64,000 nt of DNA from an uncultured Chloroflexia bacterium (GCA_963778645.1 CAVZVH010000026.1:723841-787840), one strand, 5' to 3'; counted from the stretch's first letter, positions 1 through 30,100 are shown. Notes: generated by a model not told the origin, from the letters alone. A program made the numbers and translations.

Positions 1-1520
1 AACCCGTGGTTCTCGGAGATCACGACCGTCACATCGAGACCTTCCTGGAGGGCGGTGACGAGTTCTGTGGGTTGCATGAGGAAGGTCCCGTCGCCGATCA
101 ACGCGATCACGGCTCCGTCCGCCTGGGCCAGCCGAACACCGAGCGTCGCCGGCAGCTCGTAGCCCATGCATGAGAACCCGAATTCGAGGTGGCACGCGCG
201 CCCGCCGGTGGCGTCCCAGACCTTGAGGAGATCGCCCGGCGGACCGCCGGCCGCGGCGACGATGGTATCCCCCGGCCTGGCCGCCTCCTGGAGGACGCCG
301 ATCAACTGGGCCTGGGTCATCAGCGCGTCGTTCGCTGGTTCTGGCTCAGGCGCCGCCAGCGCCGCCGCGCGGACCGGGAGCCAGGCGGCTTTCACGGCCC
401 GGGCTCGCGCTTCCCACGCTGGTCGCGGACGGACGCCTGCCTCGCGTCCAGCGGAGAGCAGGGCCTGCAACCCGCGACGAGCGTCGGCGACGATCGGGAT
501 CGCGCCCTGCTTGCGCGCGTCGCGGTCGGTCACGTTGATCGAGGCGAATCGAACCTCGGGGTCCGCAAAGATCGACTGCGAGGCCGTGGTGAAGTCCGTC
601 AGGCGCGTGCCGACGTGCAGGACGAAGTCGGCCTCGGCCGCCAGCGCGTTCGCCGCGGGATTGCCTTCCACGCCGATGCCGCCCATGCCCCACCACGCCT
701 CGGCCCCGACGGCACCCTTGCCCGCGAAGGTCTCTGTGACCGGGACCCCGAACGCCTCGGCGAGCTCGGCCAGCTGATCGCCGGCGTCCGAGTAGTGGAT
801 GCCTCCGCCGGCGACGATCAACGGTCGTTCGGCGACGGCCAACAGGCGAGCGACGTCCGCGACGACATCGAGGTCCGGCGCCGGCCGGGCGATCGCCCAG
901 TCACGTGGTGCGAGGAAGGCCGCCGGGTAGTCGTGCGCCTCGGTCTGGATGTCCTGGGGCAAGGCGATCACGACCGCGCCCATCTCGGATGGGCTCGTCA
1001 GGATGCGCATCGCCTCGGGCAGCGCGGTCAGGAGCTGTTCCGGACGCGTGATCCGGTCGAAGAAGCGCGCGACAGGACGGAAGCAATCGTTGACGCTGAC
1101 ATCGCCGGCCGACGGGTTCTCGAGCTGCTGCAGGACCGGACCCTGACGCCGAGTCGCATACGTGTCGCCAGGGAGCAGCAGTACGGGCAGGCGGTTGATC
1201 GTGGCGAGGGCCGCACCGGTGACCATGTTCGCGGCGCCAGGCCCGATCGATGCGGTCACCGCGAGCAACGAACGCCGACGCGACGCCTTCGCGAACGCCG
1301 TCGCCACGTGGACGAGCGACTGCTCGTTGCGGCCCTGGACATAGGGCATCTCCGCCCGGAACTCGTCGAGCGCCTGGCCGAGACCAGCGACATTGCCGTG
1401 ACCGAAGATGCCGAGCATCGCGGGGATCGAACGCCGGCGCTCGCCATCGGCGACGGTGTGCTGCTGGCCCAGGTATCGAACGACGGCCTGTGCCGTCGTC
1501 AGTCGAACGGTCGTCGGCAT
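1..1520 (-). CDS. iolD: IolD-type thiamine-diphosphate enzyme (3D-(3,5/4)-trihydroxycyclohexane-1,2-dione acylhydrolase), 3' end off window
   Basis: The minus frame is open from the window edge to ATG at 1518-1520; it is missing from the ORF track because no stop lies in the window. My translation reads MPTTVRLTTAQAVVRYLGQQHTVADGERRRSIPAMLGIFGHGNVAGLGQAL...GPGAANMVTGAALATINRLPVLLLPGDTYATRRQGPVLQQLE...FFDRITRPEQL. Near the edge is the TPP motif GYELPATLGVRLAQADGAVIALIGDGTFLM. AGGAGG lies upstream of the ATG. Confidence 0.85.
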   Translation of the reverse strand, partial: MPTTVRLTTAQAVVRYLGQQHTVADGERRRSIPAMLGIFGHGNVAGLGQALDEFRAEMPYVQGRNEQSLVHVATAFAKASRRRSLLAVTASIGPGAANMVTGAALATINRLPVLLLPGDTYATRRQGPVLQQLENPSAGDVSVNDCFRPVARFFDRITRPEQLLTALPEAMRILTSPSEMGAVVIALPQDIQTEAHDYPAAFLAPRDWAIARPAPDLDVVADVARLLAVAERPLIVAGGGIHYSDAGDQLAELAEAFGVPVTETFAGKGAVGAEAWWGMGGIGVEGNPAANALAAEADFVLHVGTRLTDFTTASQSIFADPEVRFASINVTDRDARKQGAIPIVADARRGLQALLSAGREAGVRPRPAWEARARAVKAAWLPVRAAALAAPEPEPANDALMTQAQLIGVLQEAARPGDTIVAAAGGPPGDLLKVWDATGGRACHLEFGFSCMGYELPATLGVRLAQADGAVIALIGDGTFLMQPTELVTALQEGLDVTVVISENHG

Positions 1521-1644
1521 ATCGTCGCGGCCCCTCCTGTCAGACGGCTCCGCGGTGACGGTCGGGGCCGCTGCCATTGTGGGCTTCTCCGGCTCGATGC
1601 GTCCTAGTAGAAGGTGGCGACCGCGTCGGTTTGCGAGCTGGATC

Positions 1645-1680
1645 GAAAACGCCGAGCGGGGGAACCTGCTCGGCGTTTTC
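1645..1680 (-). terminator. Rho-independent-type hairpin downstream of the 1699..2670 gene
   Basis: GAAAACGCCGAGC-(loop gggggaacct)-GCTCGGCGTTTTC is a perfect GC-rich stem flanked by an A-run and a T-run. It starts about 20 nt after the minus-strand stop at 1699. Confidence 0.7.
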
Positions 1681-1698
1681 GTCAGAGAGGCTTGACGT

Positions 1699-2670
1699 CT
1701 ACTGGAACGTGCCGGCGTGCACCTGATCGGCGATCTTGCGCATCCAGCCGACCATCTGCGGATCGCGCCGCTGATCGCTCTGGTAGCTCGAGTTCTGGAA
1801 GGTATGGAAGGCGATGCCGGACACCTTCGCGTACGTGAAGCCGTCGCGGACCTGCTTGCGCAGGCGGGCCTCGCTCGGACGCTGCTTCTTGTGGCAGGCG
1901 GGTGCGAGGTACTTGTGGGTCTGGACCATCAGCCAGATCGGCGTGCCCGGGGTCTTGGCGTTGACCGTCGCGCGGACGGTCTTGAAGTGCTTCGGGCCGG
2001 TCGTCTGGACATCGACGCCTGACCTCGAGCAACCGTTGCGGGCCGTCTCGACCGGATACCAGTCGATGATGAGGATGTCCGCCATCCCCGTCCCCCACTT
2101 GTTGCCGGTCTGATTGAAATGCGGGATGTCACCGAAGATCGCGAGCACCGGGTGACCCGGATCCGCCTTGTGGAAGGCCGCGTACATGGAGCGCACTTCG
2201 GCGGACGAGATGCGGTGCCACGAGGGCTCCTTGACCGTCAGGTAGCCGAAGAAGGCGGGATGACCCTTGACGATGTTGGCCCACTTGGCGGCCCTCGAGG
2301 GGTAGACCCTGCCGGTCGAGTGGTTCACGGTCTCGGGGAAGTGGAAAATGACCTTGAGGCCGCAGCGCTGCGCCGCGGCGAGGTAGTTCCTCGCGTTGCT
2401 CGACCCGGCCGCGTTCTTCATGACATGGGTGAACCCACCGTTGCAGATCCCGCGCTTGTTCGCCGCGAGGTCGGCCAGGGACACGTTCTGGAGCACCATC
2501 GGGGCCGCGGTCGCTGCCGCTGGGACACGAGCGTTGGCGGTCTGCGCGCCGACCACCGCAGCACCGGCGCTGACCGTCGCGGAGCCGAGCGAGGCGGCGG
2601 CCAGCATCGCGAGGATGACGGGCGCCAGGTATCGGCTGAGGCGGCGCGGGCGCGCGATCGGGTGAGTCAT
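1699..2670 (-). CDS. Secreted hypothetical protein, possible TIM-barrel glycoside-hydrolase-like fold
   Basis: Internal ATG at residue 77 of ORF 1699..2898, with GGAG upstream. N-terminus MTHPIARPRRLSRYLAPVILAMLAAASLGSATVSAGA is signal-peptide-like. The body (LKVIFHFPE, ILIIDWYPVE, IWLMVQTH) has alternating beta/alpha-barrel-like motifs. Function is inferred only. Confidence 0.6.
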   Translation of the reverse strand: MTHPIARPRRLSRYLAPVILAMLAAASLGSATVSAGAAVVGAQTANARVPAAATAAPMVLQNVSLADLAANKRGICNGGFTHVMKNAAGSSNARNYLAAAQRCGLKVIFHFPETVNHSTGRVYPSRAAKWANIVKGHPAFFGYLTVKEPSWHRISSAEVRSMYAAFHKADPGHPVLAIFGDIPHFNQTGNKWGTGMADILIIDWYPVETARNGCSRSGVDVQTTGPKHFKTVRATVNAKTPGTPIWLMVQTHKYLAPACHKKQRPSEARLRKQVRDGFTYAKVSGIAFHTFQNSSYQSDQRRDPQMVGWMRKIADQVHAGTFQ

Positions 2671-2810: not shown

Positions 2811-4646
2811 TCAACCGCGACAGGCCCCCGCGGGCCGCAGGCGGACCGCTGACACGGCGCCGCCCGGGCCGACGCCAAGGCCGTCGCGACTGACACAAGC
2901 GGCCTCCCCCAGGCGACCGAGCAGCGCGTCGAGGTCCCCGCCGGAGACGACCGGTTCGACCGCCAGGAAGCGCGCGATCGCCCCGGCCTCACCGTCGGCC
3001 GGCGCGGCCAGGTCGAGCCAGGCCATCGCCGCGTCGGCGCTCGCGTGCAAGGGGATCGTCTCCGAAGCGGCGGCCACGGTCGCCGGGTCGACGGCGAACA
3101 CCTCGGCCCGATCCTCCCCGTCGTCGAAGCGCTCGTCGAGGAGGAGGCCGGCAACGTGACCGGCCGCCAGGCTGGCGGCCAGAGCGTCCGGCGTGAACGG
3201 ATGCGGGCCGGACAGGACGAGGTAGCGCGCCGGAGGCATGGCCAGGACCTTCGTCCACGCCGACCGTGTGTACCCGAACAGCTGGCGGTCGCGGAGACCC
3301 ACCCAGACGTACGTCGTGAGGTCGTCGGCGGGGTCGACGCGGACGGCGGGCAGGCTCACCATCTCGACCGAGTCGAACAGGCGCAGCGCCATGGACTCGC
3401 GGTCCTTGAACGTCATCGCGACCCGGTCGCCAGCACTCGTGTTCGCCCTGAGCCAGGCCGCCAGTCGATCGGGCACGAGCGCGCTGGGTGGCCGTCCGGC
3501 GGAGCGCTGGCCAACGACGATGCCGCCAACGAGGCCCAACCCCAGCACGGCCAGGAGGGCCGCGGCGGCGACGCGCCGAGGGCCGGTCGGCGCCCCCGAT
3601 GTCGCTCGGGGCGTCTCGTCGCCGGACGTGGTGCCGGACCGGGCGAGGCGGCGCCGGATCGAGGCCACCGACCATGCCCCGGCGATGCCGAGGGCGGCCG
3701 CGGACAGGACCGCCAGGCCGGCGTAGTTGCGGGCGTTGAGGCTCTGCGATGCCGCATACAGGGCGGCTGGCAACAGACCGGCGGCGGCCGCGACCAGCAG
3801 CCGGGGTCCCCGCTCGGTCCGGGCACGCCAGGCCACCGCCACCCACGATGCCGCGAAGAGGCCGATCAGGACCAGCGCCGGGCGTGCGACCCGAACATCC
3901 AGCCCGACATCGCGGCCCTCGATCACGCCGATCGCGTTGAGCGGGAACAGGTCGCCCGCGCTCAGCCAGACGACTGCCCACCACCAGCCGGCGGTGACGA
4001 GCGCGGCTCCGAGATAGACGCCCAGGTACGTCGCCACCCGTCGTGCGGGTTCGAGGCCGAGCAACGCGAGTGGCAGCAGCGCCAACGGAAGCACCGTCTC
4101 CTTGACCAGGATCGTCAAGCCGAACAGGACACCGGCGAACGCCCACCGGCGTTGCGAGGGACGCCAGACGGTGAGCAGGATCGCGACCACCCCGGCCGTC
4201 TGGGGCAGGTCGATGCGAAGGGACGGCACGAGGCGCCAGACGATCGGTGTCGCGAGCAGCGCGAGCATGGTCCCCACCGCCCCGCCAGGACCGGCCACCA
4301 GCCAGCCGATCCGGGTGACGCCCAGCAGGCACGCCATCGCCAGGACGAGGGCGACGATCCGGGCACCGGTCATGGGGTCGCCGCCGACCACCGTGCTCCC
4401 GGCCGCCAGCAGCAGCCCGTACACCGGCGAGCGCAGCAGGAACGTCGTTCCGGACGGCGTGACCGGCCCGTCACCCGCGAGGACCGACAGGCCGACGAAG
4501 AGGTAGCGGGCGTCATCGGGCGCCACGGGCGACCAGCCGAACAGCGCCGTCCGGAGCAGAACGACGGCGACCAGGGCCGCCCCAAGTCCGATCGCGATCG
4601 GCCAGTCGTCGCGTGCGCGGCGCCGGATCTCGGTCAGGTTCGCCAC
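2811..4646 (-). CDS. Large GT-C (ArnT/PMT-like) integral membrane glycosyltransferase-like protein with C-terminal soluble domain
   Basis: This is the C-terminal 611 codons of ORF 2811..5972, starting at GTG 4644-4646. The upstream part of that ORF is Arg/Pro-rich shadow. There are about 10 hydrophobic segments (DDARYLFVGLSVL, LTILVKETVLPLALLPL), followed by a ~250-aa non-membrane domain. Confidence 0.7.
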   Translation of the reverse strand: MANLTEIRRRARDDWPIAIGLGAALVAVVLLRTALFGWSPVAPDDARYLFVGLSVLAGDGPVTPSGTTFLLRSPVYGLLLAAGSTVVGGDPMTGARIVALVLAMACLLGVTRIGWLVAGPGGAVGTMLALLATPIVWRLVPSLRIDLPQTAGVVAILLTVWRPSQRRWAFAGVLFGLTILVKETVLPLALLPLALLGLEPARRVATYLGVYLGAALVTAGWWWAVVWLSAGDLFPLNAIGVIEGRDVGLDVRVARPALVLIGLFAASWVAVAWRARTERGPRLLVAAAAGLLPAALYAASQSLNARNYAGLAVLSAAALGIAGAWSVASIRRRLARSGTTSGDETPRATSGAPTGPRRVAAAALLAVLGLGLVGGIVVGQRSAGRPPSALVPDRLAAWLRANTSAGDRVAMTFKDRESMALRLFDSVEMVSLPAVRVDPADDLTTYVWVGLRDRQLFGYTRSAWTKVLAMPPARYLVLSGPHPFTPDALAASLAAGHVAGLLLDERFDDGEDRAEVFAVDPATVAAASETIPLHASADAAMAWLDLAAPADGEAGAIARFLAVEPVVSGGDLDALLGRLGEAACVSRDGLGVGPGGAVSAVRLRPAGACRG

Positions 4647-5902
4647 GACAGCGCCATTCGGACGTCCCGCCAGAGCCCGCCGGCGCCGTCCGCGGCCAGG
4701 AGCCGCCAGGCCACGACCAGCGCGATGAGGACGGCCAGGCCGTTGACGCCGAGGGCGTGGGTGCGGGCCACGAAGACGACGAGGAGCGCCCCCGCGATGA
4801 TGTCGCCGGTCCCGTGCCGGCGTCGCGCCAGGAGCGCACCCAGGCGCTCGATACCGACACCGAGCAAGGCGAACAGGCCCAGGCCAGCCGGCCCGAAGTT
4901 CGCCCACGCCTCGCCGACGATCCCGGGCGCCAGGTAGCCCGGCGGATCCTGGGCGGGGAAGACGCGCGGATAGATCCAGTAGCCGAGGTTCGGGATGTCG
5001 TCGCGCCCGACGAGCGGGCCGAGACGCCGGGCCCACGTCAACCCGCCGAAATACGGCTGCTCGTCCGGGATGACGTCCTGGAGCGCCTCGAGCGTGCGCG
5101 GCTGGATCAGGATGACGCGGTTGATCGTGCGCTCGACGGCGAAGGCGAGCTCCCGGCCGGCCGCCTGCTCGTAGGCGCGCAGGATCTGGATGCCGCCGAA
5201 GGCGAGGACGCCCACCACGGCCGCCGTGGCCAGCCATCGCCAGGGCAGCCGCCATCCCGCCAGCCCGACACCGACGAGGAGGACGGCCACGAGCTCCGCG
5301 GCGAGATAGCGGCTCGCGAGGGCGATCTCGAAGGCGAGGAGCGCCACGATGGTCGCGTACGAGGCCAGTCGCCACGCCCGTGGCCGTCCGGCCGCTGTCA
5401 GGACCAGCCCCAGGGCCAGGGCCGGGAACGCCACGCGCAGTTCCTGGACCGTGAGGCCGGTCAGCTCGCTCCGCGCCCCGGTGATGTCGTCGGCCAGGGC
5501 GGGCAGGCCGACTCGGGCGATCGTCGGCAGGATCAGGACCAGTCCCAGCACCGCCAGGCCGATCGCCACGACCGGGCGCCAGTGGCCGGCATCCAGCTGG
5601 CCGTCGCTGTCGGGAATGTCGGTCGCCGGGTGGGCCGGACCCGCCCGCCGGCGCGCGACGCGGTCGCTGATCGCGACACCGAGGGCCAGCGCCAACGTGC
5701 ATCCCGCGACGTAGAGAGCCGGTCCGGTGCGGTCGTCGATGGCGAGCCTGACGCTGCCGATCCCGAAGAAGACCGCGTGCAGGACCAACCAGGCGATCGC
5801 CGGATGCCACACGCCCAGCCCGGTCCGTCGGACGGCCGGCAGGACGAGGCCAGCCGCGGCCACGAAGGCGCCGATGACCAGCAGTGAAACGAGCAGGTTC
5901 AC
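4634..5902 (-). CDS. Wzy-like oligosaccharide repeat-unit polymerase (polytopic membrane protein)
   Basis: 422-aa ORF with a GTG start. It is multi-TM and carries a periplasmic-loop-like segment and PGYLAPGIVGEAWANFGPAGLGLFALLGVG, which is typical of O-antigen polymerases. Its 3' end overlaps the downstream start by 13 nt. Confidence 0.65.
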   Translation of the reverse strand: MNLLVSLLVIGAFVAAAGLVLPAVRRTGLGVWHPAIAWLVLHAVFFGIGSVRLAIDDRTGPALYVAGCTLALALGVAISDRVARRRAGPAHPATDIPDSDGQLDAGHWRPVVAIGLAVLGLVLILPTIARVGLPALADDITGARSELTGLTVQELRVAFPALALGLVLTAAGRPRAWRLASYATIVALLAFEIALASRYLAAELVAVLLVGVGLAGWRLPWRWLATAAVVGVLAFGGIQILRAYEQAAGRELAFAVERTINRVILIQPRTLEALQDVIPDEQPYFGGLTWARRLGPLVGRDDIPNLGYWIYPRVFPAQDPPGYLAPGIVGEAWANFGPAGLGLFALLGVGIERLGALLARRRHGTGDIIAGALLVVFVARTHALGVNGLAVLIALVVAWRLLAADGAGGLWRDVRMALSWRT

Positions 5903-6930
5903 ACTGGCCCCTCGACGCGCTCGGTCTGGAGCGCGTCACTGGCAGCCCGCGCCGCCGCGTCGGCTCCGCCATCGGGCAGGCTCGCCGAGAGGCGAGCGTA
6001 GGAGACCACCCCCGCGAGGCCCAGCGGCAACGTCGAGACGATGCGGAAGCCGAACACGATCGCGACGGCTTCGGCCGACGGGACCCCGGCCACGGTCAGC
6101 AGACCGGCCACGACGAGGTCCGTGGACCCGAGCCCGAACGGCAACAGGGAGACGACGCCGGCCACGATCCCGAGGCCGAGGGCGCCCCAGGCCACGGCCG
6201 GGTCCAGTTCGACACCGATCGCGGCGCCGACCAGCATCAACTGCGCGGTGTACGCGGCAAACACGACCGCCGTCCAGGCCGCGAACTCGAGCGCCCGCCC
6301 CCGATCGACCAGGAGCCGGGCGACGACATCGTCGACCCGGGCGAGGGCGCCACCGGCCGCCAGCCACCGGTCGCGTCCGAACAGGCGGCCCAGGGGTAGC
6401 GCCCGGATCAGCGCGGACGGCCGACCACCGGCGCGATAGAACAGGTTCGGCAGGACCACGATCACGAACAGCGCGACGACGATCACGACGGACGGAAGGT
6501 CCAGCCACCAGGCCGCCCACAACACCGCCGCGCTGGCGCCAAGGAAGGCGATGGCGACAAAGCGCTCGATCAGGACGACCGCCGCGCCGATCCGGTACTC
6601 GACGCCGTGGTGCGCCCGCAGGAGATAAAGCCGCGCCAGCTCGCCCACCGATCCGGGCGTCAGGTTGTTGATGGTGTTCGCGAACGCGGTCATCGGGACC
6701 AGCGGGAGGACCGGGACCGGCCGTCCCGCGGCCGCCAACAGGCCGGCCGAGCGCATCGCCCAGGCCACGAGGATCACCACGTTCAGGGCCAGGGCCAGGA
6801 CGATGGCCCGGCCGTCCGCTGTGCCGAGTCGATCGCCGAGTTCCCACGGCCTCGCCCGCCACGCCACGAGCGCCAGCAACGCGACCGAGATCGTGCCCCA
6901 GACCAGGGGGTTTCGGAGGGCACGGATCAT
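5899..6930 (-). CDS. UPF0104 / lysyl-PG-synthase-TM-like flippase-like membrane protein
   Basis: Last 343 codons of ORF 5899..9114, starting MIRALRNPLVWGTISVALLALVAW. Motifs TAFANTINNLTPGSVGELARLYLL and LLPFGLGSTDLV are present. Its ATG overlaps the upstream stop as ATGA at 6927-6930. Confidence 0.7.
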   Translation of the reverse strand: MIRALRNPLVWGTISVALLALVAWRARPWELGDRLGTADGRAIVLALALNVVILVAWAMRSAGLLAAAGRPVPVLPLVPMTAFANTINNLTPGSVGELARLYLLRAHHGVEYRIGAAVVLIERFVAIAFLGASAAVLWAAWWLDLPSVVIVVALFVIVVLPNLFYRAGGRPSALIRALPLGRLFGRDRWLAAGGALARVDDVVARLLVDRGRALEFAAWTAVVFAAYTAQLMLVGAAIGVELDPAVAWGALGLGIVAGVVSLLPFGLGSTDLVVAGLLTVAGVPSAEAVAIVFGFRIVSTLPLGLAGVVSYARLSASLPDGGADAAARAASDALQTERVEGPV

Positions 6931-9114
6931 CGGGTGCGACCCCAGACGACCGCATCGTCGGTCTCGGTCAGAGTCTGCCAGCCGGGTGGCGGACCGTCGT
7001 CGGGCACGTACCCGGTCACCGACTGGATCGCGATCCGGTCCGCCGCCTCGATCACCAGCGGCTCGCCGGCGGCCAGGGTCACCGCCGATCGCACGACCTG
7101 GAATTCCGCGCTGCCCGTGTAGGGCACGGCGATCTCCTCGACGAGGCGATCTCCCGCCAGGATGCGAATGCGTCGTGTGGCGTCGGCGCCTCCCGGACCC
7201 AGCGCGCCCGCGGTCGCGTCGGGCGGCGTCGGGGCGAGGTCGTCGACCGCGCCGGCGCCACCCGAGCCCGTCTGACCGGTGTCGTCCGGGGTCGCGCCCG
7301 CTCGCGTGAGGACGCGGATCTCGAGCTCGATCGGCTCGGCCGCGCTCGCCAGCGCGAAGGAGAGGCTCGATCCGGGTTCCAGCACGACCGCGTCCCAGCC
7401 GTTGCCCGGCAGGATCCGGGTCGACCCGGTCGTGGCGCCCGGGGCCATCGCGGCCAGCGCGGCCACGCGACTGATGCGACCCACCGCGTCGCCTCGTCGC
7501 CCGAGCACGATCCGGTCCGCGCCATACCGGTCGGCGACCGCCGTCAGGGCCGCCGTGTCGCCGGTCAGGGCCCCGGCGAGGTCCCGTCGGCGCTCGTCCT
7601 GTCCGGTGCCCGTGAACACGGCCGGATCGAAGCCCAGCTTCGCGTAGCCCGGCGGTTCGACGGCCACGACCGAGGCCCCGGTCTCGTACCAGACCAGCGA
7701 CGACCAGTCCTCGTAGGTGAGGATCGTCGGGCGCGGTCCGGTCACCGCTGAGCAGCTCGGACATGTCCGGGACGCGGTCGGGGCCCAGTTGCAGATGGGC
7801 GTAGCGCGGGTCCGTCCAGAGCGTCCAGAGCAACCGCTCAGTGGCGAGGGACGTCGGCACACACGCGAGCAGGAGCACGATCGCCAGGCCGGCCGACACG
7901 AGGCGTGGGCGGGCAACCTGGCGAGCCCGAACGAGCTCGACCAGCGCCACCAGGCCGATGGCCGCCAGGATGAGCCCCGGCTGGCTTGACACCATCCACA
8001 TCCGTTGCGGCCGAAGCGCGTCCTCGAGCGGCCAGGTGGGTTGATAGAGCACCGCCAACGCGAACGGGACGAGCCACCACGCCAGGAGGAGCAGCGGGCC
8101 CTCCGATGGCCGGGGCGCCCATCGGCCGGAGCCGCCCACCGGCGGCCCACTCGCCCGTCGGAGGAAGGACAGCGCGACGCCTGCCCCGACGATCGTCAGT
8201 GGCAGGATCAGCCCGAACTGGATGGGGTACTGCCAGAACCCGATGCGGACCGGCAGCAGGTCCTCGGAGGAATCGATGGAGACCCCGCCGTTCGTGCGGA
8301 TCGTCCCGACGAGGTACCCGAGCCACGGCGTCACGAGGACGGCCGCCACCGCTCCGGTCACGACCAGGGCGCCGATCAGGCGGCCCCAGCGCGACGGGTG
8401 CCGGAGCCCGACGACGACGATCAGGGTCGCCAGCGCGATCGGGATCGGGATCAGCAACTGGATCTGGACGAGCCCGCAGATGCCCAGCAGGACTCCGGCG
8501 AGCGCGGCCCAGGCCATGGTCCGTGAGCCTTCGTCGGTGGCCCGCAGGAAGGCCAGGATCGCGAACGGGAGCAGCCCGAACACCAGGTCGCGCGGATAGG
8601 CCGGGTAGAACGCCTGCCCGACCATGAACATCGAATTGACCCACAGCCGGTCGTCGGAGAGGTCGAACCCGCCGGCGAACGAGGTCAGGACGGCGGCCAC
8701 CAGGGCCACGTCCTTTCGTCCGGTCAGGCGGCGGGTCAGGAGGTAGGCACCGAGCGGGATCACCGGCAACCAGATCAACCCGAGCAGGGTGGTGGCGGTC
8801 GGTGCGTCCGTCCCGAACAGCCGGGCGATCCCCGCGAGCAGGAGGTGGAAGCCCGGCGGGTAATAGGCCGGCAGGCCCGCGTACGGGCCCTCGGCCGGGA
8901 ACGTGCCCAGCAGGATGGTGTTGGTCAGGCCCCAGTGGTAGAGGAGGTCGCCACGGACGTAGAACGGAGCCAGCGCTCGGGCGCCATAGACGGCCATCGC
9001 GCCGACCAGGAGGACGCCGAGCCACCGTTCCGCCCGAGGGATCGTCGCCAGGCGCTGTCGTACACTCCGGACCGATCCCCATACGCGGCGGCCGATCGCC
9101 AGGTCGCTGCTCAC
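6927..9114 (-). pseudogene. GT-C (ArnT/PMT-like) membrane glycosyltransferase-like gene with one frame disruption near 7735-7750
   Basis: The N-terminal membrane domain is in the frame of ORF 5899..9114 (through ...LQLGPDRVPDMSELLSG). The C-terminal domain continues in the frame of ORF 6927..8150 (PRPTILTYEDWSSLVWYETGASVVAVEPPGYAKLGFD...). Architecture parallels 2811..4646 and 9145..11259. Confidence 0.65.
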
Positions 9115-9144
9115 GCGCCCTGTTCGAGGTAGGACCGACGCTCC

Positions 9145-11259
9145 ATGGATCCCATCGCGCTCGTTGCGTCCGCCGTCTGGGCGACGATGGTGTCCATCCT
9201 CCTGTTCCTGTTGCCCGGTGCCGCGCTCGGGCCGGTCGTCCTGCCTGGCGCCTCGACGCCGCTCGCACGAGTGGGTCGCGCGGCCGGCGTCAGTCTACTG
9301 GCGACCCTGCTCCTGTGCACCATCCTGGCCCGCCTCGGCTGGCTCACGGTCCCGGCGATCATCGCCTCGCTGATCGGTCTGACGGTGCTCGGCCTGGCCT
9401 GGCGCAGGCCGCGCGTCGGACGACCGTCCGATCGATGGCGCCGCTGGTGGCTGGCGGGGTTCGCGGGGATCCTCCTGGCCGCTGCGCTCATCGTCGTGCC
9501 GTCGGCGGCCTCGGCGTGGCCGGACCTGCTGCCGAAGAGCTCGACCACCTGGTATTACGCCAACCTGGCCCAGTCGATGGCCCAGCTCGGCGCGATCCCG
9601 GACGCGCTGGCGGAGTGGGGGGCCTTCCGGCCATTCCAGACCGACTACCTGCCCGTGACCGCCCACACCGCCGCCACGATGCTGCTGTTGCCCGGTGACC
9701 TGCTGGCCGATCTCGAGGTCTACCGCCTCGCCACCCTCGTGCTCGGCCTGCTGTTCGCGACGCTCCTGTTCCGACGATGGGTGTCCGGCTGGGCGGCGGT
9801 GCTCGGCGCCATCCTCCTCCTGGGCACGGTCCGCCTTGACCAGAAGTTCGACGGGTACCGGCCGGAGACGCTCGCACTCGTCGTGGCGCTGTTCACGCTC
9901 TGGGTCGCGGACCGGGCGTTCGCCGAACGAAGTCGCCGCGCGTTCGGCGTGGCGCTCGTCGGGACCGCGCTCGTGTTCCTCAGTCACGCGGAGGTCTTCC
10001 TGATCCTGGCCCCCGCCCTCGTCGGCATCGCCCTCGCCAGGCTGGTCGTCGCCGATGGGCCGCGCCCGACCCGTCTCGGCCTGCGCCGTCGATGGCCTGC
10101 GCGGGCCTTTGCGGCTCCGGTGCTCGCGGTCGCGCTCGTCCTCGGCGGTGTCGCCCTGGGTGCAGCTGGCGGCTGGGCGCTGACCGGCGAGAGCCGGGTG
10201 CTCGGCTATGTCGTGGGGGATCCGGGCGCCGTCACGGATCCCAACGCCTCGCGCGGCCGACCGGGCGAGGTCCCGGCCGGCTGGACATTCACGGACGACG
10301 CGACGTGGGACTTCTACATCGCCTCGGTGGCGCCGGGGTTGAACGGCGCACAACCACCGGATGCCTTCACGGACACGCTCATGCTGCCCCGGTCCATCCT
10401 CCTCATCTGGCCGGGCCTCGACGGACGATTCCGATCCGGCCTGGTCGTGCTCGTGGCCCTGTTGATCGCCCCGCTGCTGGCCTGGCCGTTCCTGGACACG
10501 CGTCGGCGGCGGTTCGTGCTCGGGTGGGGGATCTTCGGGGTCGGCCTGATCGTCGGGTCGCTGCTGCTCTACGCCATCGCTGACACGTACGTGCCGCAGC
10601 GCACACCCGGGCGGCGGCTGATGCCCTATCTGCTGCTGCTGCCGGTCGTGGCGATGACCGCGGCGCTCTGGGTGACGGGCCGCCTGCTGGCACCCGCGTG
10701 GCGTGCGCTTCTGCCGGGGCGCGGGCGGGCCCTGGCGGCCGGACTCGCCCTGGCCCTCCTCACGGCCGGCGCCGTGTCCGCGTCACCCCTCGCGGTCGCT
10801 GGGGCCGACGATGGCGACGCCGCACTCAGCCAGACCGGCTACGACGCGTACCGATGGATCGATGCGAACCTGCCCGCCGATGCGCGGCTCCTGACCAACG
10901 CCTACACGGATGGGGCGGTCGCGGCGGTCGCCCATCGGGTCGGGATCGTGGATGGGCGGGCCGTGTACCTGGAGAACGCGGCCTTCCTCGCCGAGTCGAC
11001 GGCGCTCTGTCTCGGCGCGCGCGTCGTGTTCGGGACGCCGGCCGCGCCGGGCGCCACGACGTACCTCGATCGCGAGCGCGTGACGCACCTGCTCGTGGCG
11101 ACGAACGGGCCCAACGGGACGGATCTGGGCGGGTACCTGCTGTTCGAGACCGACGTCGACGCACTGCGGGCCGACCCGCGCCTTCGACTGGTCCGCTCGT
11201 TCGACGATGGCCGGCTGCTGCTGTTCGAGATCGCCGGCCGGACCGCATCGGCTGGCTAG
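9145..11259 (+). CDS. Large GT-C (ArnT/PMT-like) integral membrane glycosyltransferase-like protein with C-terminal soluble domain
   Basis: Intact 704-aa ORF with about 12 hydrophobic segments, then a ~170-aa C-terminal domain (YDAYRWIDANLPADARLLTNAYTDG...RLLLFEIAG). It is divergent from 9114 with only ~30 bp between the starts. Confidence 0.7.
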   Translation: MDPIALVASAVWATMVSILLFLLPGAALGPVVLPGASTPLARVGRAAGVSLLATLLLCTILARLGWLTVPAIIASLIGLTVLGLAWRRPRVGRPSDRWRRWWLAGFAGILLAAALIVVPSAASAWPDLLPKSSTTWYYANLAQSMAQLGAIPDALAEWGAFRPFQTDYLPVTAHTAATMLLLPGDLLADLEVYRLATLVLGLLFATLLFRRWVSGWAAVLGAILLLGTVRLDQKFDGYRPETLALVVALFTLWVADRAFAERSRRAFGVALVGTALVFLSHAEVFLILAPALVGIALARLVVADGPRPTRLGLRRRWPARAFAAPVLAVALVLGGVALGAAGGWALTGESRVLGYVVGDPGAVTDPNASRGRPGEVPAGWTFTDDATWDFYIASVAPGLNGAQPPDAFTDTLMLPRSILLIWPGLDGRFRSGLVVLVALLIAPLLAWPFLDTRRRRFVLGWGIFGVGLIVGSLLLYAIADTYVPQRTPGRRLMPYLLLLPVVAMTAALWVTGRLLAPAWRALLPGRGRALAAGLALALLTAGAVSASPLAVAGADDGDAALSQTGYDAYRWIDANLPADARLLTNAYTDGAVAAVAHRVGIVDGRAVYLENAAFLAESTALCLGARVVFGTPAAPGATTYLDRERVTHLLVATNGPNGTDLGGYLLFETDVDALRADPRLRLVRSFDDGRLLLFEIAGRTASAG

Positions 11260-11269
11260 ACTGTCGTCG

Positions 11270-12808
11270 ATGACCGAGCCCGAAGCCGCGACGCTGGAGC
11301 CGCGCCCGCTGGGAGGCATCCCCGACTTCTACGGCGCGATCTGGGCCGGAGCTCGCGTGGCCGCCGCTCGTTGGCGGGTGGCGCTCATCGTCGAGGTCGC
11401 GATGGTCGTCGCGTGGTTCATCGTCCGCTCGACCGCCAGCATCGACGGCCGAACCTACGCGTTGTGGGTCATCGCGGCCGGTGCCCTGGCGCTCGTGGCG
11501 CCGCTGTCCGGACTCGTCGTCTTCGTCGCCACCTCGGTCGCTTTCGAGCCTGACACGGTCGCCCGGACGCTGTCGTCGCGCGAGCTCGTCCTGCTGCCGC
11601 TGACCGTGGGCGTGTTGCTGCGGGTCGGCGCCGACCGGTTCCGCTGGCGGCCCGTGCCCGCCGATCTGGCTCGCGCTGGCGCATCCTGCTCGGGACGGCC
11701 CTGGGGCTCGCGAACACGTTCGCGCGGTTCGACAGACGACTTCGCCTGGCGTGCGGCCCAGTCCTGGTACGGCAACATGGCGGCGCCCGTGATCGTGCTC
11801 GTCGCGGCGGCGTGGACGGCCCGGGGCGGCTCGACGCGGGTCATCGTCGCGGCCGCATCGTCGCGGTCGTCAGCGCGATCGTGTGTCTTGCTCGAGTACG
11901 CGTCGCCGGGCCTGATCTCGCGGGAGCCGGTTCGAGTGGGTCGGGTTCTGGAAGGACTTCGGGGTGCGGCTGTCGGGCACGATCCCGTCGCCGAACGCCC
12001 TGTCCGCCCAGCTCGATCGTGCCGACCGCGGTGCTGCTGGCGGCCGTGCTCCTGGCACCGGACCTGCGGCTCAAGGTGCTGGCCGCGTTGGCGCGTCATC
12101 CCGCTGCTCGTCGCCCATTACCTGACGTTCAGCCGGTCGCCGTTGCTCGCGTGCTACGCGTTCGCCGTCATCGTCGCCTGGCGCGTTCGCCGCGCGGTCG
12201 GCATCGCCGTGCTCGTCGGCGGCCTGATCCTCGGGGCGGTCCTGCTGCCCGCGTACCTGCGAACTGCGGAGCGCGACGACCCCGAGGGCGCAGGTCATCC
12301 CGGGCATCGATCCTGGTCGCCACCGACCAGTATCGGATCCAGGCCTGGGGCGCCGCGATCGAGATGTGGGCGCGACGAACCGCTGATCGGCCAGGGCTAT
12401 CTCGCGTACAAGGAACTCGGGCCGCGCTTCGGCGATCCAGTTCTGGGCTCGCCCCACAACGAGTGGCTTCGGTTCTTCGCCGAGGAGGGGACGATCGTCG
12501 GCCTGGTGGGCTCGCGTTCGTCGTCGCGACCGCGTGGTCGCTCGCGACGCGTCCCGGGCTGGCTCGGGACCGGCGATCCTCGCCGGATTCCTCGGCTACG
12601 TCATCGCGGCGTCGTTCAACAACCCGTTGCTGTTCGTCCGGGTCAGCGCCGTGGCGTTCTCGATCATCGGGGTCGGGCTGGCACTGGCCGAGCGGGCCCG
12701 TGCGCCGGCCCCGGCGACGGAGCGGTCGAGGCGATCGATGCGTCGCCATCGACCGACGAGTCGTCCGCGCCAGATGCACCGGAGACCGCCGAGCCGAGCC
12801 CAGCCTGA
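11270..12808 (+). pseudogene. O-antigen ligase / Wzy_C-family membrane protein, heavily frameshifted
   Basis: Protein-like pieces alternate among all three plus frames. They are MTEPEAATLE...RFRWRPVP, ILLGTALGLANTFARFD, DDFAWRAAQSWYGNMAAPVIVLVAAAW, WVGFWKDFGVRLSGTIPSPNALSAQL, IPLLVAHYLTFSRSPLLACYAF, SILVATDQYRIQAWGAAIEMW, PLIGQGYLAYKELGPRFGDPVLGSPHNEWLRFFAEEG and PAILAGFLGYVIAASFNNPLLF. Confidence 0.7.
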
Positions 12809-12867
12809 CACCGGGAGCGAGTCGACGCCGCGGGTCGCGTCGTCTCGCGGCGCTACACTTCCCCGGC

Positions 12868-13920
12868 ATGCCGATCAGTCTCCTGCGCATCGCCGGTCTG
12901 GTCCTCGCGGTCGTCCTCGTGCTCGTCGCGATCGGTCGACTTCGGCGACGCGGTGCCGGGAGCCGGGTGCCCGCCAGCGGGCTGCTCGTCGTCGGTCTTG
13001 GCCTGCTCGGCGTCGCCCTCTTCCCGGACCTGGTCCGGCCGATCCAGGACATCCTGGGCCTGGAGGGTGAGCCGCTCGGTCGGCTCGTCACCGTCCTCGT
13101 CATCTCCACGGCGATCGCCTACCTGCTCGTCTTCTATGCGCTGAGTCGGGCCGATCGCGCGAACCAACGCGTCAGCCGCCTGGTCCGGGCCCTGTCGGCC
13201 GCACAATTGGAAGCGGCCCGTGGCGAACGCTGGGGCGGGGTGCTCGTGTGCATCCCGGCCTTCGATGAGGCGGACAGCCTCCCCGGCGTCCTGGCCGAGG
13301 TTCCCCCGGAGGTGGCCGGCCTGGCGACCCATGTGCTGGTCATCGACGATGGCTCGCGGGATCGAACGGCCGAGGTCGCCCGTGCCAAGGGCGCGCACGT
13401 CGTGAGCCATCCAGTGAACAGCGGCCAGGGGGCGGCGCTCCAGACGGGCTATCTCGTGGCCGAACGACTCGGTGTCGATGTCGTGGTGACCCTCGACGCC
13501 GACGGCCAGCACGACCCGGGCCAGATGACGCGGCTCGTCGAGCCGATCGTGGCCGACGAGGCGGACTTCGTGGTCGGCTCGAGGCGCATGGCCGAAGGCG
13601 AGAGCGAGGGCGCCTCGAAGGCGCGCGATGCCGGCATCACCGTTTACACCCGGCTCATCAACCTGATCGGCGGCACCGAGGTGAGCGACATCGCCAACGG
13701 ATATCGGGCGATCCGCGCCTCCCGCCTGGCGGACATCGCGTTCACCGAGGACCAGTTCCACAATCCGGAGTTGCTGCTCGGCGCGGCCCGTGCCGGCCTG
13801 CGGGTCGTGGACGTGCCCGTCACGATCCGGCGCCGGACCGCCGGATCGTCGAAGAAGGGGACGGACCTGCGCTACGGCCTCGGCTTCCTGCGGGTGATGC
13901 TCAAGACCTGGCTGCGCTGA
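12868..13920 (+). CDS. DUF2304-like membrane domain fused to GT2 polyprenyl-phosphate sugar synthase-like glycosyltransferase
   Basis: ATG at 12868 within ORF 11812..13920, 350 aa. The N-terminal ~115 aa has hydrophobic helices. It is followed by VLVCIPAFDEADSLPGVL...VLVIDDGSRDRT...VVVTLDADGQHDP...DIANGYRAI, a DPM1/GtrB-like GT2 core. Confidence 0.8.
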   Translation: MPISLLRIAGLVLAVVLVLVAIGRLRRRGAGSRVPASGLLVVGLGLLGVALFPDLVRPIQDILGLEGEPLGRLVTVLVISTAIAYLLVFYALSRADRANQRVSRLVRALSAAQLEAARGERWGGVLVCIPAFDEADSLPGVLAEVPPEVAGLATHVLVIDDGSRDRTAEVARAKGAHVVSHPVNSGQGAALQTGYLVAERLGVDVVVTLDADGQHDPGQMTRLVEPIVADEADFVVGSRRMAEGESEGASKARDAGITVYTRLINLIGGTEVSDIANGYRAIRASRLADIAFTEDQFHNPELLLGAARAGLRVVDVPVTIRRRTAGSSKKGTDLRYGLGFLRVMLKTWLR

Positions 13921-14818
13921 GCGCGGTCTCCACGATATCGGCCAGGGTCCGGTCCATCGGGATCGCTGGCCGCCAGCCGACGGCACCTTCGATCGCCGAC
14001 GCGTCGCCGACGATGTCCGGGGCATCCGTCGAGCGGACGAGGTCCGGGTCGACCTCGATCGATGGTCGAACGCCGATCAGCTCGGACAGCCGGTCCAGCA
14101 CCTCCCCGATCGCGATGCTGTGGCCGGATGCGACGTTGAAGGTGGCACCGCCCGGTGCGATGGCGCCGGTCGCGAGGCCCTCGAGCAGGAGCCGATAGGC
14201 GACGACCACGTCCCTGACATCGGTGAGGTCGCGACGGACGTGCAAGTTGCCCACCCGGACGCGATCCGTCGTTCCCCTTCGGACCGCGATGAGCCGTTCG
14301 GTGAGGGCCGGGACCACGAAGTCCGATCGTTGGCCCGGGCCGATGTGGTTGAACGCGCGGGTGACCACGACCCGCAGGCCGTGCCGACTCGCGTAGGCCA
14401 GGGCGACGGCCTCCTGCGCCGCCTTCGACAACCCATAGGTCGTCGCCGGGGCGAGGGGCTGGGTCTCGCGCAGCGGCAGATCTTCCTGGCTCGGGAGGCC
14501 ATACACCTCGGACGAGCCCGTCACGAGGACGACCGGCGAGGGCTCCAGCCCGCGAACCGCCTCCATGAGCGCGATCGTTCCGGCGACATTGACCTCGAAC
14601 GCCTCGGCGGGACGAGCGCGAGCGTCCGGCCCGAACGAGACGGCCGCGAGATGCGCGATGGCATCCGGCCGCACCGAACCGAGCCAGGCGCGGAGATCGT
14701 CGCCGCGGCGAATGTCCAGGCCGTGCTCGAGAGCGACCGACTCGTGCTCCGCCGAACCGAGGTCGGCGGTCAGCCATCGACCGACGAAGCCATGGGCCCC
14801 CGTGACGGCGACGCGCAA
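13901..14818 (-). CDS. rmd: GDP-4-dehydro-6-deoxy-D-mannose reductase (GDP-D-rhamnose forming), SDR family
   Basis: 305 aa. Motifs are MRVAVTGAHGFVGRWL, TTYGLSKAAQE (YxxxK) and RVGNLHVRRDLTDVRDVV. It lies immediately downstream of gmd on the same strand. Confidence 0.75.
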   Translation of the reverse strand: MRVAVTGAHGFVGRWLTADLGSAEHESVALEHGLDIRRGDDLRAWLGSVRPDAIAHLAAVSFGPDARARPAEAFEVNVAGTIALMEAVRGLEPSPVVLVTGSSEVYGLPSQEDLPLRETQPLAPATTYGLSKAAQEAVALAYASRHGLRVVVTRAFNHIGPGQRSDFVVPALTERLIAVRRGTTDRVRVGNLHVRRDLTDVRDVVVAYRLLLEGLATGAIAPGGATFNVASGHSIAIGEVLDRLSELIGVRPSIEVDPDLVRSTDAPDIVGDASAIEGAVGWRPAIPMDRTLADIVETALSAARS

Positions 14819-14834: not shown

Positions 14835-15875
<1,041 letters not shown>

Positions 15876-16764: not shown

Positions 16765-16782
16765 GACGCGGCCGGGACGGAT

Positions 16783-28892: not shown

Positions 28893-28910
28893 CACGGCGG
28901 CGATCCCCGG

Positions 28911-30083: not shown

Positions 30084-30100
30084 GCGCAGAGCCTACGCGC

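Follow-up and report, generated by a model that had tools for sequence, protein, structure and literature searches.

A moderately supported polyprenyl-phosphate-sugar-dependent extracytoplasmic glycosylation system in a conserved cell-wall glycopolymer locus of Limnocylindria

We favor, with moderate confidence, the view that a gene block in a soil genome, a Limnocylindria-type Chloroflexota MAG and not an actinobacterium, is the conserved core of a Limnocylindria cell-wall glycopolymer locus with a polyprenyl-phosphate-sugar-dependent extracytoplasmic glycosylation system. The block lies in a 64,000-nucleotide stretch of DNA, which we call the window. An earlier note on this DNA had proposed a module with a GT2 enzyme that charges a lipid, a membrane protein that re-orients this carrier, and GT-C enzymes that pass the sugar on outside the membrane. 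This interpretation is partly supported: the charge-flip-transfer logic holds, as far as computation goes, because of the GT-C fold, the type of GT2, and the invariant acidic residues described below. The module does not stand alone: its genes form part of a conserved Wzy/LCP/priming-transferase core, which had gone unrecognized.

Results

Locus organization and conservation

Coding regions were located with GC3 frame plots and ORF translations at 2811-4646 (minus strand, gene A), 6927-9114 (minus, D), and 9145-11259 (plus, E), showing that the genes first listed are real and correctly placed; within the same span, however, the Wzy-like genes B (4634-5902, minus) and F (11270-12808, plus) had been overlooked. 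The GT2 gene, G (12868-13920, plus), was said to adjoin the GT-C genes; it is in the same block, but F separates it from E. Along D-C-B-A, consecutive genes overlap by 7, 4, and 13 nt, with overlapping stop and start codons. The block runs in the order G-F-E/D-C-B(-A), after which come genes for an LCP enzyme, a priming phosphoglycosyltransferase, and another LCP enzyme. The arrangement is not due to chance, given the D-C-B-A overlaps and the finding of this block at 41 species-representative loci of Chloroflexota, which correspond to about 40 species genomes of Limnocylindria. Among 26 long loci from different species, LCP is present in 26, B, E, and F in 25 each, C and G in 24 each, the priming transferase in 23, and A in 11; synteny across these loci marks D and E as universal in the block and A as accessory. 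G is the sole cytoplasmic glycosyltransferase of the conserved core, to which the priming transferase and the LCP ligases also belong, and the sugar-nucleotide genes at the block edge vary, those of three loci (L001, L002, and L003) being other than those of the window.

Two sets of genes flank the block. A conserved secreted protein of ~323 aa with an N-terminal signal-like helix ("sec", 1699-2670, minus; identified from its GC3 frame and translation) had no match in Pfam, NCBIfam, or the PDB, and its orthologs adjoin the module in 15 of the 26 long loci. Outside the conserved core on the other side, Pfam identifies an SDR reductase/epimerase (13901-14818, minus) and a GDP-mannose 4,6-dehydratase (14835-15833, minus). 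This pair, with GDP_Man_Dehyd scores of 429 and 163 bits, is the start of a variable Wzx/Wzy glycan cassette that extends to ~35 kb.

A putative polyprenyl-phosphate sugar synthase

In the 350-aa G protein, Pfam recognizes a GacJ/Rv3632-like DUF2304 domain with three transmembrane (TM) helices (35 bits), fused to a GT2 catalytic domain (Glycos_transf_2, 82 bits). The best NCBIfam matches are PpgS (111 bits), AglJ (103), Dol-P-hexose transferase (75), and ArnC (55), and the best PDB matches are ArnC (1.4e-12) and DPMS (8.4e-12). Judged by this grouping with PpgS, AglJ, ArnC, and DPMS, G is a putative polyprenyl-phosphate sugar synthase; it is not a PpgS ortholog, because 111 bits compares with an equivalog cut-off of 370. 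The GT2 is anchored in the membrane by DUF2304, and its best matches are all polyprenyl-phosphate glycosyltransferases, in keeping with the lipid-charging role first proposed for it. DUF2304 partners bind and stimulate polyprenyl-P-sugar synthases in the GacJ/GacI and Rv3632/PpgS pairs, and DUF2304-GT2 fusions have been reported in other bacteria (Rush et al. 2017, 10.1101/180810). No gene of the block is conserved more strongly than G, at 69-94% identity, whatever sugar genes flank it.

The candidate flippase

Gene C (5899-6933, minus) encodes a 344-aa UPF0104/LPG_synthase_TM flippase-like membrane protein, which scores 104 bits against Pfam PF03706 (LPG_synthase_TM; GA 33.4) and 68.7 bits against the NCBIfam "flippase-like domain" model TIGR00374 (cut-off 43.2). 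In 24 of the 26 long loci, C and the GT-C genes share an operon; by analogy with the flippase domain of MprF, and given this position, C would most likely be the flippase of the polyprenyl-P-sugar, although UPF0104 proteins are not known to flip such a lipid. UPF0104/COG0392 proteins have been predicted to be glycosylation flippases in archaea, where they lie near PMT/STT3-like and AglD-like genes (Makarova et al. 2015, PMC5898192).

There is a smaller but appreciable chance that the DUF2304 domain of G, or else a Wzx-like protein, flips the lipid, with C moving a different one, such as a polyprenyl-PP-linked primer or a glycolipid or lipoglycan anchor. The DUF2304 protein Rv3632 is itself listed as a putative flippase, the streptococcal flippase is the Wzx-like GacK (Rush et al. 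2017, 10.1101/180810), and the Citrobacter system uses a MATE-family protein (Kelly et al. 2024, PMC11127046). Three Wzx-like flippase genes occur in the window, within the same 41-kb locus; moreover, the conserved core includes a priming transferase but no Wzx or ABC exporter of its own, and C could therefore handle the primed intermediate. Yet the effect shown for GacJ is stimulation of synthase kinetics and not flipping (Rush et al. 2017, 10.1101/180810), the Wzx-like genes sit in the variable cassette outside the conserved block, and it is C that shares an operon with the GT-C genes.

Three unrelated GT-C families

As first described, A, D, and E have a common architecture: by hydropathy and, for D and E, AF2 models, the N-terminal part of each is polytopic and the C-terminal part lies outside the membrane (~9-11 TM helices and ~228 aa in A, ~11-13 and ~295 aa in D, ~14 and ~150 aa in E). 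They had also been called paralogous, but no paralogy is detectable at the sequence level, with best pairwise BLASTP E-values of 0.11, 1.5, and 0.38 and profile-profile hhalign probabilities of 0.65%, 0.46%, and 5.3%. A, D, and E are three separate families, and the GT-C fold is the only thing common to them. Assignment of that fold, which the original proposal required, comes from AlphaFold/Foldseek for D and E and from the Pfam PMT_2 model for A. The family models of D and E are of high confidence, and all of their significant full-length matches in the PDB are GT-C enzymes, the best being AglB, STT3, AftA, PglB, DPY19, ArnT, AftD, and EmbC (E 1e-11 to 1e-4). All three proteins carry invariant acidic residues in the first outward loop (D44/D45 in A, D56 in D, E157/D167 in E), with Arg-rich N-termini or loops on the opposite side.

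A (611 aa) is predicted to be a GT-C enzyme because it passes the PMT_2 gathering score (28.8 bits, GA 26.1) and because 32 of the 43 members of its family match this model; its invariant D44-D45-A-R-Y follows immediately after TM1. D, ~729 aa once its frame is mended, belongs to family DUF6541 (31.2 bits, GA 29) and has invariant D56, Y59, and H60 past TM1. The AF2 model of its family (P0001, 78% identical to D, pLDDT 86.5) matches AglB (1.8e-11), AftA (6.5e-11), ArnT (2.7e-6), and CBM6/35 (4e-4) in Foldseek; the C-terminal part comprises an alpha/beta region and a CBM6/35-like beta-sandwich, with matches to CBM6/35/22. This terminal module suggests that the acceptor is a glycan. E (704 aa) has three additional N-terminal TM helices and, in its first large outward loop, invariant E157-W-G and D167-Y. 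Its PMT_2 score of 19.4 bits is under GA, and 27 of 45 family members match PMT_2; the family model (pLDDT 87.1, pTM 0.90) matches STT3A (8.8e-8), AglB, AftA (1e-5), PglB, DPY19, and ArnT. GT-C enzymes can alternatively take polyprenyl-PP-oligosaccharide donors, and the top structural matches of E are oligosaccharyltransferases, an observation that runs counter to a monosaccharide donor.

A recognizable carbohydrate-binding fold was found in the C-terminal domain of D alone, and not in those of A and E. That the three C-terminal domains reflect three acceptor specificities, as the earlier note suggested, is speculation.

Two Wzy-like proteins

B is a Wzy-like polytopic membrane protein of 422 aa and a putative glycan polymerase, classified through remote family members. 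The window protein had no Pfam match; O_anti_polymase was found in 6 of 24 remote members (E 3.4e-7) and O-ag_pol_Wzy in 2 of 24 (E 4.5e-8). The family has only 93 matches among 1.84 billion representatives, and the gene, located between A and C, is syntenic in 25 of the 26 long loci. F is a Wzy_C (O-antigen ligase/polymerase-type) membrane protein, recovered by aligning the DNA, with frameshifts allowed, to the unbroken 562-aa ortholog of L001 (66% identity, with 16 frame changes from 11663 to 12794). The intact ortholog scores 59.9 bits against Wzy_C (GA 31.7), and a single-frame reading of F in the window scores 25.8.

Discussion

A proposed pathway

Family membership suggests that G, working at the cytoplasmic face of the membrane, would charge polyprenyl phosphate with a single sugar taken from a nucleotide sugar. 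The polyprenyl-P-sugar would then reach the outer leaflet, most likely via C, given its operonic position and the MprF precedent. D and E, joined in some genomes by A, would take this lipid-linked sugar as donor and add residues to a glycan outside the membrane, and D may dock on the polysaccharide through its CBM6/35-like module. Synteny further suggests that B and F polymerize or join undecaprenyl-PP-linked units, that the neighboring priming phosphoglycosyltransferase begins these units and the variable Wzx/Wzy cassette next to the block completes them, and that the two LCP enzymes attach the product to peptidoglycan.

A different use of the same enzymes, which we consider unlikely, is that the GT-C proteins build a whole homopolymer domain from the polyprenyl-P-sugar of G by priming, elongation, and branching outside the membrane, as for arabinan or mannan. 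In mycobacteria, AftA, Emb, AftC, and AftD build with decaprenyl-P-arabinose. One donor synthase alongside several unrelated GT-C enzymes, with D and E universal and A accessory, would suit such assembly, as would the presence of AftA, AftD, and EmbC among the structural matches and the high conservation of G regardless of flanking sugar genes; furthermore, a core with no cytoplasmic glycosyltransferase besides G, but with a priming transferase and LCP ligases, follows the logic of arabinogalactan assembly. However, the core invariably adjoins a GT4/GT2-rich variable cassette that includes Wzx and Wzy genes, implying that a conventional repeat-unit polymer is made too, and the oligosaccharyltransferase, ArnT, and DPY19 matches are as good as the Aft/Emb ones, so the fold cannot separate decoration from polymerization. 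The arabinan and lipomannan systems of mycobacteria and corynebacteria (AftA-D, EmbA-C, MptA/B) resemble the block in combining several unrelated GT-Cs with one lipid-linked monosaccharide (decaprenyl-P-arabinose or polyprenyl-P-mannose), a priming transferase, and an LCP ligase. In contrast, Wzy-like proteins are present here and the donor synthase is a GT2, whereas decaprenyl-P-arabinose is made via a phosphoribosyltransferase; no sequence-level relationship to the enzymes of these systems was found.

Whether the pathway operates in this organism depends on the reading frames of D and F. D is a real gene, as first annotated, but its span of 2188 nt is not divisible by 3, and a single surplus base near 7746 splits the frame; with the breaks in F, this makes 17. 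If real, these breaks would make the system inactive in this genome, D and F being true pseudogenes of a decaying, relic cluster. The breaks are strongly clustered, since ~7.5 kb of neighboring genes (A, B, C, E, G, and sec) have none; even so, we regard decay as improbable. The pieces of F keep their identity to the intact ortholog and a GC3 bias in each local frame, and in related long-read "contig_" MAGs frameshifts are scattered over many different block genes, with essentially none in short-read assemblies, the pattern expected of a technical artefact. Thus, the breaks are most likely long-read assembly errors, and the organism itself probably has unbroken copies of D and F.

Glycosylation of secreted or S-layer proteins, rather than polysaccharide, by one or more of the GT-C proteins, above all A and E (PMT_2) or E (STT3/AglB-like), is very improbable. 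In its favor, the A and E families match PMT_2, STT3 and AglB top the Foldseek list of E, its C-terminal domain is weakly like the C-terminal globular domain of AglB (E 0.02), and in archaea the N-glycosylation enzyme AglD carries a fused UPF0104 domain (Makarova et al. 2015, PMC5898192). However, translations of A, D, and E lack the WWDXG motif and have no match to Pfam STT3 or MIR, PMT_2 covers GT-C enzymes broadly, ArnT-like lipid and glycan transferases included, D has a carbohydrate-binding-module-like domain, and the context of LCP ligases, priming transferase, and Wzy-like proteins fits cell-wall glycopolymer machinery.

Relationship to known systems

Decoration of a wall glycopolymer, the reading that we favor, has parallels in several systems. 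GacI/GacJ/GacK/GacL of Streptococcus pyogenes produces the GlcNAc side chain of the group A carbohydrate (Rush et al. 2017, 10.1101/180810). Like the Limnocylindria block, it pairs a GT2 polyprenyl-P-sugar synthase and a DUF2304 partner with a GT-C enzyme acting on an extracellular cell-wall polysaccharide, and LCP attaches the polymer. It differs in that DUF2304 and GT2 are a single polypeptide here, the co-operonic flippase candidate is UPF0104 instead of the Wzx-like GacK, there are two to three GT-C enzymes of unrelated families instead of one, the block includes two Wzy-like proteins, and the phylum is Chloroflexota. The PpgS (Rv3631)/Rv3632/Rv3779 system of Mycobacterium tuberculosis, which places galactosamine on arabinogalactan, includes the best NCBIfam match of G, and its adjoining membrane protein, Rv3630, is MATE-like rather than UPF0104. 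Skovierova and colleagues are said to have found, in 2010, that a GT-C enzyme then moves the sugar of this system onto the wall polysaccharide. PpgS is stimulated by Rv3632, which belongs to the DUF2304 proteins (Rush et al. 2017, 10.1101/180810).

In archaea, GT2-UPF0104 proteins of the AglD type and an adjoining PMT/STT3-like arCOG00563 protein (Makarova et al. 2015, PMC5898192) bring together the same three families, namely a Dol-P-sugar-type GT2, UPF0104, and GT-C. UPF0104 is often fused to the GT2 in archaea, whereas here DUF2304 is fused and UPF0104 separate; the archaeal systems serve N-glycosylation of S-layer proteins, and the flippase role of UPF0104 is a prediction in both.

The three-component systems GtrA/GtrB/GtrC, CsbB/GtcA/YfhO, ArnC/ArnEF/ArnT, and Citrobacter PPPRS/MATE/GT136 follow the same logic of lipid-linked monosaccharide, flippase, and GT-C. 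The C-terminal CBM of Citrobacter GT136 binds substrate (Kelly et al. 2024, PMC11127046), a role that, by analogy, we propose for the C-terminal module of D. Their flippases belong to the GtrA, SMR, or MATE families instead of UPF0104, and these systems are accessory modifiers with a single GT-C, whereas here a multi-GT-C system would be a universal part of the core locus of the lineage. The charge-flip-transfer logic known from streptococci and mycobacteria would be carried out in Limnocylindria by an unusual set of parts.

Gene Map and Conserved Gene Block

Because the G+C content of the window is ca. 70%, genes were called from frame plots of third-codon-position G+C (GC3) together with stop-to-stop ORFs. 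Four genes on the reverse strand overlap successively by 7, 4, and 13 nt: D (6927-9114, 2188 nt, with a reading-frame switch near 7746), C (5899-6933, 344 aa), B (4634-5902, 422 aa), and A (2811-4646, 611 aa). A and D encode large membrane proteins, C a UPF0104 protein, and B a Wzy-like protein. The overlaps indicate that these four genes make up one operon with translational coupling. A gene for a secreted protein of ca. 323 aa (sec, 1699-2670, same strand) adjoins A. On the forward strand lie E (9145-11259, 704 aa), which encodes the third large membrane protein; F (11270-12808), of the Wzy_C type and with 16 frame changes; and G (12868-13920, 350 aa), a DUF2304-GT2 fusion. The start codons of the divergent genes D and E are separated by a 30-bp gap (9114-9145), a spacing that is the same in two related loci (L001 and L002); thus, both promoters must overlap coding sequence or each other. 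The positions given for A, D, and E in the earlier note were correct by frame plot and ORF, but it had overlooked B and F, as well as the frame switch in D. Rfam detected no RNA family in the window.

We compared this arrangement with three neighborhoods carrying precomputed Pfam annotation (L001-L003) and with 41 species-representative loci. All homologs come from Chloroflexota and, where named, from Limnocylindrales or Limnocylindria. An actinobacterial origin, initially taken from the G+C of 70%, was rejected on the strength of these names. The recurrent block comprises G and F, in either order, and E; divergently from these, D, C, B, sometimes A, and sometimes sec; and then a gene for an LCP enzyme, a priming phosphoglycosyltransferase gene (Bac_transf), and a second LCP gene. 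Among the 26 loci of ca. 20 kb or more, over which genes were counted, LCP was present in 26, F, E, and B in 25 each, G and C in 24 each, and the priming transferase in 23, with sec syntenic in 15 and A found in 11. G, C, and the D/E/A proteins are encoded within 11 kb and conserved together in ca. 24 of these 26 loci, so that the grouping treated as a module in the earlier note does co-occur in these loci. A TPP-enzyme gene occupies window positions 3-1928, as in L001, and the LCP/priming part of the block is expected immediately outside the left end of the window. On the other side of G, the gene content changes from locus to locus: GMD and a reductase here, DegT and an acetyltransferase in L001, and different genes in further loci.

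The GT-C Proteins A, D, and E

A matched the Pfam PMT_2 model at 28.8 bits (GA, 26.1), as did 32 of its 43 relatives, which gave no other match; by this HMM match, A is assigned to the GT-C superfamily. The N-terminal part of D matched DUF6541 (31.2 bits; GA, 29). E scored 19.4 bits with PMT_2, below GA, and 27 of its 45 relatives matched this model. Single-sequence and profile searches of the PDB returned nothing meaningful for any of the three proteins, and fold comparison alone succeeded. An AlphaFold2 model of the D family, made on a relative 78% identical to D of the window (P0001; pLDDT 86.5, pTM 0.87), matched AglB (1.8e-11), AftA (6.5e-11), and ArnT (2.7e-6) in Foldseek, with further matches to yeast and human STT3, PglB, DPY19, AftD, and EmbC. 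The model of E from the window (pLDDT 87.1, pTM 0.90) matched STT3A (8.8e-8) and AftA (1e-5), as well as AglB, PglB, DPY19, ArnT, AftD, and ALG12. The models thus clearly predict a GT-C fold for D and E, and, with the PMT_2 match of A, they agree with the GT-C assignment originally proposed for all three proteins. We ruled out E as a member of the oligosaccharyltransferase family, the likeness being at the level of the fold only: the WWDXG motif is absent from the translations of A, D, and E, and Pfam gave no STT3 match.

The C-terminal beta-sandwich of D resembled CBM6, CBM35, and CBM22 modules in Foldseek (E 4e-4 to 3e-3, target TM 0.6-0.73); Pfam gave nothing usable for the C-terminal domains of A, D, and E at E-values up to 1. 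Our literature search found no paper mentioning DUF6541; the model would now make this family one of GT-C fold that carries a carbohydrate-binding module.

Family alignments also point to the conserved acidic residues that the earlier note anticipated in the first extracytoplasmic loop. In A (43 sequences), D44-D45-A-R-Y is invariant in the predicted first outward loop, after TM1; in D (49 sequences), D56 is invariant, with Y59 and H60, again after TM1; and in E (45 sequences), E157-W-G and D167-Y are invariant in the first outward loop, which here follows TM4. According to the secondary structure of the D-family and E models, the invariant acidic residues are located at juxtamembrane helices.

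The proposal that A, D, and E are paralogs did not hold up. The best BLASTP E-values among them were 0.11, 1.5, and 0.38, and hhalign comparisons between the three family alignments gave probabilities of 0.65%, 0.46%, and 5.3%. Their sole link is at the superfamily level, through PMT_2, which the A and E families touch, and DUF6541, which 2 of the 45 relatives of E touch in Pfam.

A Putative Polyprenyl-Phosphate Glycosyltransferase and a Candidate Flippase

Of all genes in the block, G shows the strongest conservation, with 69-94% identity. Its product has three N-terminal TM helices, with DUF2304 (35 bits; GA, 25.5) fused at the N-terminus to a Glycos_transf_2 domain (82 bits) in Pfam, a fusion also present in L001-L003, and the translation shows DAD and DDG motifs. 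The best NCBIfam scores, relative to the equivalog cut-offs, were 111/370 bits for PpgS, 103/325 for AglJ, and 55/529 for ArnC, with a Dol-P-hexose transferase at 75 bits; the best PDB relatives were ArnC and Pyrococcus DPMS (E ca. 1e-12). All of these matches are of the polyprenyl-phosphate glycosyltransferase type and, together with the predicted membrane anchor, they support the earlier placement of the GT2 in that class. G did not reach equivalog-level identity to a characterized enzyme in NCBIfam and, because its scores fall far below the cut-offs, its sugar is not assignable. We rejected a reading of the donor sugar from the neighboring GMD and reductase genes, because the neighbors differ among genomes while G stays this similar.

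C scored 104 bits with LPG_synthase_TM/UPF0104 (PF03706; cut-off 33.4) in Pfam and 68.7 bits with the "flippase-like domain" model TIGR00374 (cut-off 43.2) in NCBIfam; these sequence matches place C in the UPF0104/MprF flippase-domain family. PDB searches with C found nothing.

In working terms, we describe this as a three-component extracytoplasmic glycosylation system, in which the co-located polyprenyl-phosphate GT2, flippase, and GT-C enzymes would correspond to G, C, and D/E/A. Established knowledge of its family suggests that G would make a polyprenyl-monophosphate-sugar. GacJ and Rv3632, which are DUF2304 partners of polyprenyl-phosphate-sugar synthases, bind these enzymes and stimulate them; fusions are also on record (Rush et al. 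2017, 10.1101/180810). Given its operon position and a prediction in the literature, C would be the flippase for the polyprenyl-phosphate-sugar: UPF0104/COG0392 proteins are predicted to flip lipid-linked sugars, and archaea show the same three families in association (Makarova et al. 2015, PMC5898192). The GT-C enzymes would then use the polyprenyl-phosphate-linked donor on the outer face, as their family and the co-operonic G and C suggest. The three-component GT136 system of Citrobacter includes a GT-C enzyme with a substrate-binding C-terminal CBM (Kelly et al. 2024, PMC11127046).

It is possible, though doubtful, that flipping is done by the DUF2304 domain or by a Wzx-like protein and that C moves another lipid. 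The listing of Rv3632 as a putative flippase speaks for the DUF2304 domain in this role. Wzx-like genes are confined to the variable cassette next to the block, and Pfam found no GtrA, Wzx/MATE, or SMR flippase, the validated types, in the conserved block of the window or of L001-L003. We also consider it unlikely that the GT-C enzymes, instead of adding side branches, polymerize an entire domain in the manner of mycobacterial arabinan. Both alternatives are refinements of the three-component model, not contradictions of it.

Frame Breaks in D and F

Aligned with an intact 728-aa relative, D has exactly one extra base and is 79% identical over the full length. A frame-aware alignment of F with an intact ortholog of 562 aa from a relative placed its 16 frame changes between 11663 and 12794, with 66% amino acid identity kept. 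This ortholog scored 59.9 bits with Wzy_C (PF04932; cut-off 31.7), which places F in this family; F of the window, read in one frame, scored 25.8 bits because of the frame breaks. The breaks in F are mostly single extra bases and fall within 1.1 kb, while ca. 7.5 kb of neighboring genes has none and D has one; long-read error leaves this clustering without explanation.

Across the 44 related loci, compared by tblastn, breaks were spread widely, affecting many different genes, in the long-read MAGs (records labeled "contig_" and "MFD" isolates) and were essentially absent from the same gene block in short-read assemblies (k141, NODE, and scaffold records). The simplest reading of the breaks in D and F is therefore indel error in a long-read assembly, rather than pseudogenes or a programmed frameshift. 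Because several relatives of D are truncated near a similar length, we considered a programmed frameshift or a split gene; this was rejected, since the break positions differ among the relatives and track long-read assemblies. That the module is decaying in this genome, with D and F as true pseudogenes, is improbable against the pattern across assemblies.

A 793-aa database protein (P0057) consists of the C-terminal part of a D ortholog joined to a UPF0104 ortholog, followed by frameshifted sequence. This apparent fusion is a gene-calling artifact arising from the 4-7 nt gene overlap and indels, and it illustrates how false fusion proteins from such assemblies reach public databases. Frame breaks in long-read data call for caution with every gene call in this Chloroflexota lineage.

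Adjoining Glycan Genes and the Proposed Acceptor

B itself has no direct Pfam match, and its family is tiny, with 93 matches among 1.84 billion representatives. We regard B as Wzy-like because remote family members match O-antigen polymerase models (PF01901, 6 of 24; PF14296, 2 of 24). The sec protein had no match in Pfam (E up to 1), NCBIfam, or the PDB; its sequence pattern loosely suggests a glycoside-hydrolase-like barrel, which is an impression.

The region at 15757-35041 is a variable, conventional Wzx/Wzy polysaccharide cassette encoding six GT1/GT4-type transferases (five typed GT4), two GT2 enzymes, four methyltransferases, two epimerases/dehydratases, two Wzx/MurJ-like flippases, and a second Wzy_C protein (20796-22424). 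Module and cassettes together form a glycan locus of ca. 41 kb, in which four genes are Wzy-like and three are Wzx-like. In a further, partly fragmented set of glycan genes at 35000-42750, G+C is lower, at 0.66-0.68, and the codon-position signal is weak. The set includes a GT1-like gene (35110-36042); a Wzx-like gene whose two parts lie in different frames (36558-37400, 36832-37923); a third Wzy_C gene (37995-39089); a methyltransferase gene (39579-40514, forward strand); and fragments of a GT4 gene (40275-40982) and of a GMD-like gene (42020-42733). It may represent a cassette that was acquired or has degraded, or else a stretch laden with errors. Outside the glycan locus, forward-strand genes at 42771-46558 encode a metallo-beta-lactamase-fold protein with rhodanese domains and a triple-GAF GGDEF diguanylate cyclase.

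The genomic context suggests that the acceptor would be a wall glycopolymer, which the priming transferase would start, the Wzy-like B and F proteins would handle, and the LCP enzymes would anchor. Pfam gave no PMT (PF02366) or MIR match for A, D, or E, the PMT_2 match being generic, and Pmt1-Pmt2 was a weak structural match to the D family and E (E 1.5e-3 or worse in Foldseek). Lacking the WWDXG motif and any STT3 or MIR match, the three proteins are not STT3-type oligosaccharyltransferases or GT39 PMTs by membership, and we regard protein glycosylation as very unlikely.

Comparison with Known Systems and Significance

The closest relatives of this system are GacI/J/K/L and PpgS/Rv3632/Rv3779. 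It differs from both in having a UPF0104 protein in place of a GtrA, Wzx, or SMR flippase; in the fusion of DUF2304 to the GT2; in its two or three GT-C proteins from unrelated, lineage-restricted families, one of them the uncharacterized DUF6541; and in the two Wzy-like proteins that belong to the block. Moreover, the block is a universal core here, not an accessory serotype modifier.

The three-component logic of GT2, flippase, and GT-C is well established, with the flippase as its least understood step, and the practical impact of our findings is modest for that reason. Limnocylindria are a widespread uncultured class of Chloroflexota in soil and freshwater. It is conceivable, although we hold it to be unlikely, that in this class a universal wall polysaccharide is assembled mostly outside the membrane by several unrelated GT-C enzymes, which one polyprenyl-phosphate-sugar feeds, with a stand-alone UPF0104 protein as flippase; such an arabinogalactan-like assembly line would have arisen independently of that in Corynebacteriales. 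The value of the locus lies in DUF6541 as a predicted GT-C protein with a CBM and in a test case for a UPF0104 flippase within an uncultured, abundant class. C offers a clean bacterial case for the 2015 UPF0104/COG0392 prediction, being stand-alone, co-operonic with GT-C genes, and conserved in ca. 40 species. If the model holds, the block would supply a concrete set of genes, open to testing, for the synthesis of cell-wall glycopolymers in a major uncultured class of Chloroflexota; and if UPF0104 is indeed a polyprenyl-phosphate-sugar flippase, this would be the first functional assignment of a very large family outside aminoacyl-phosphatidylglycerol translocation.
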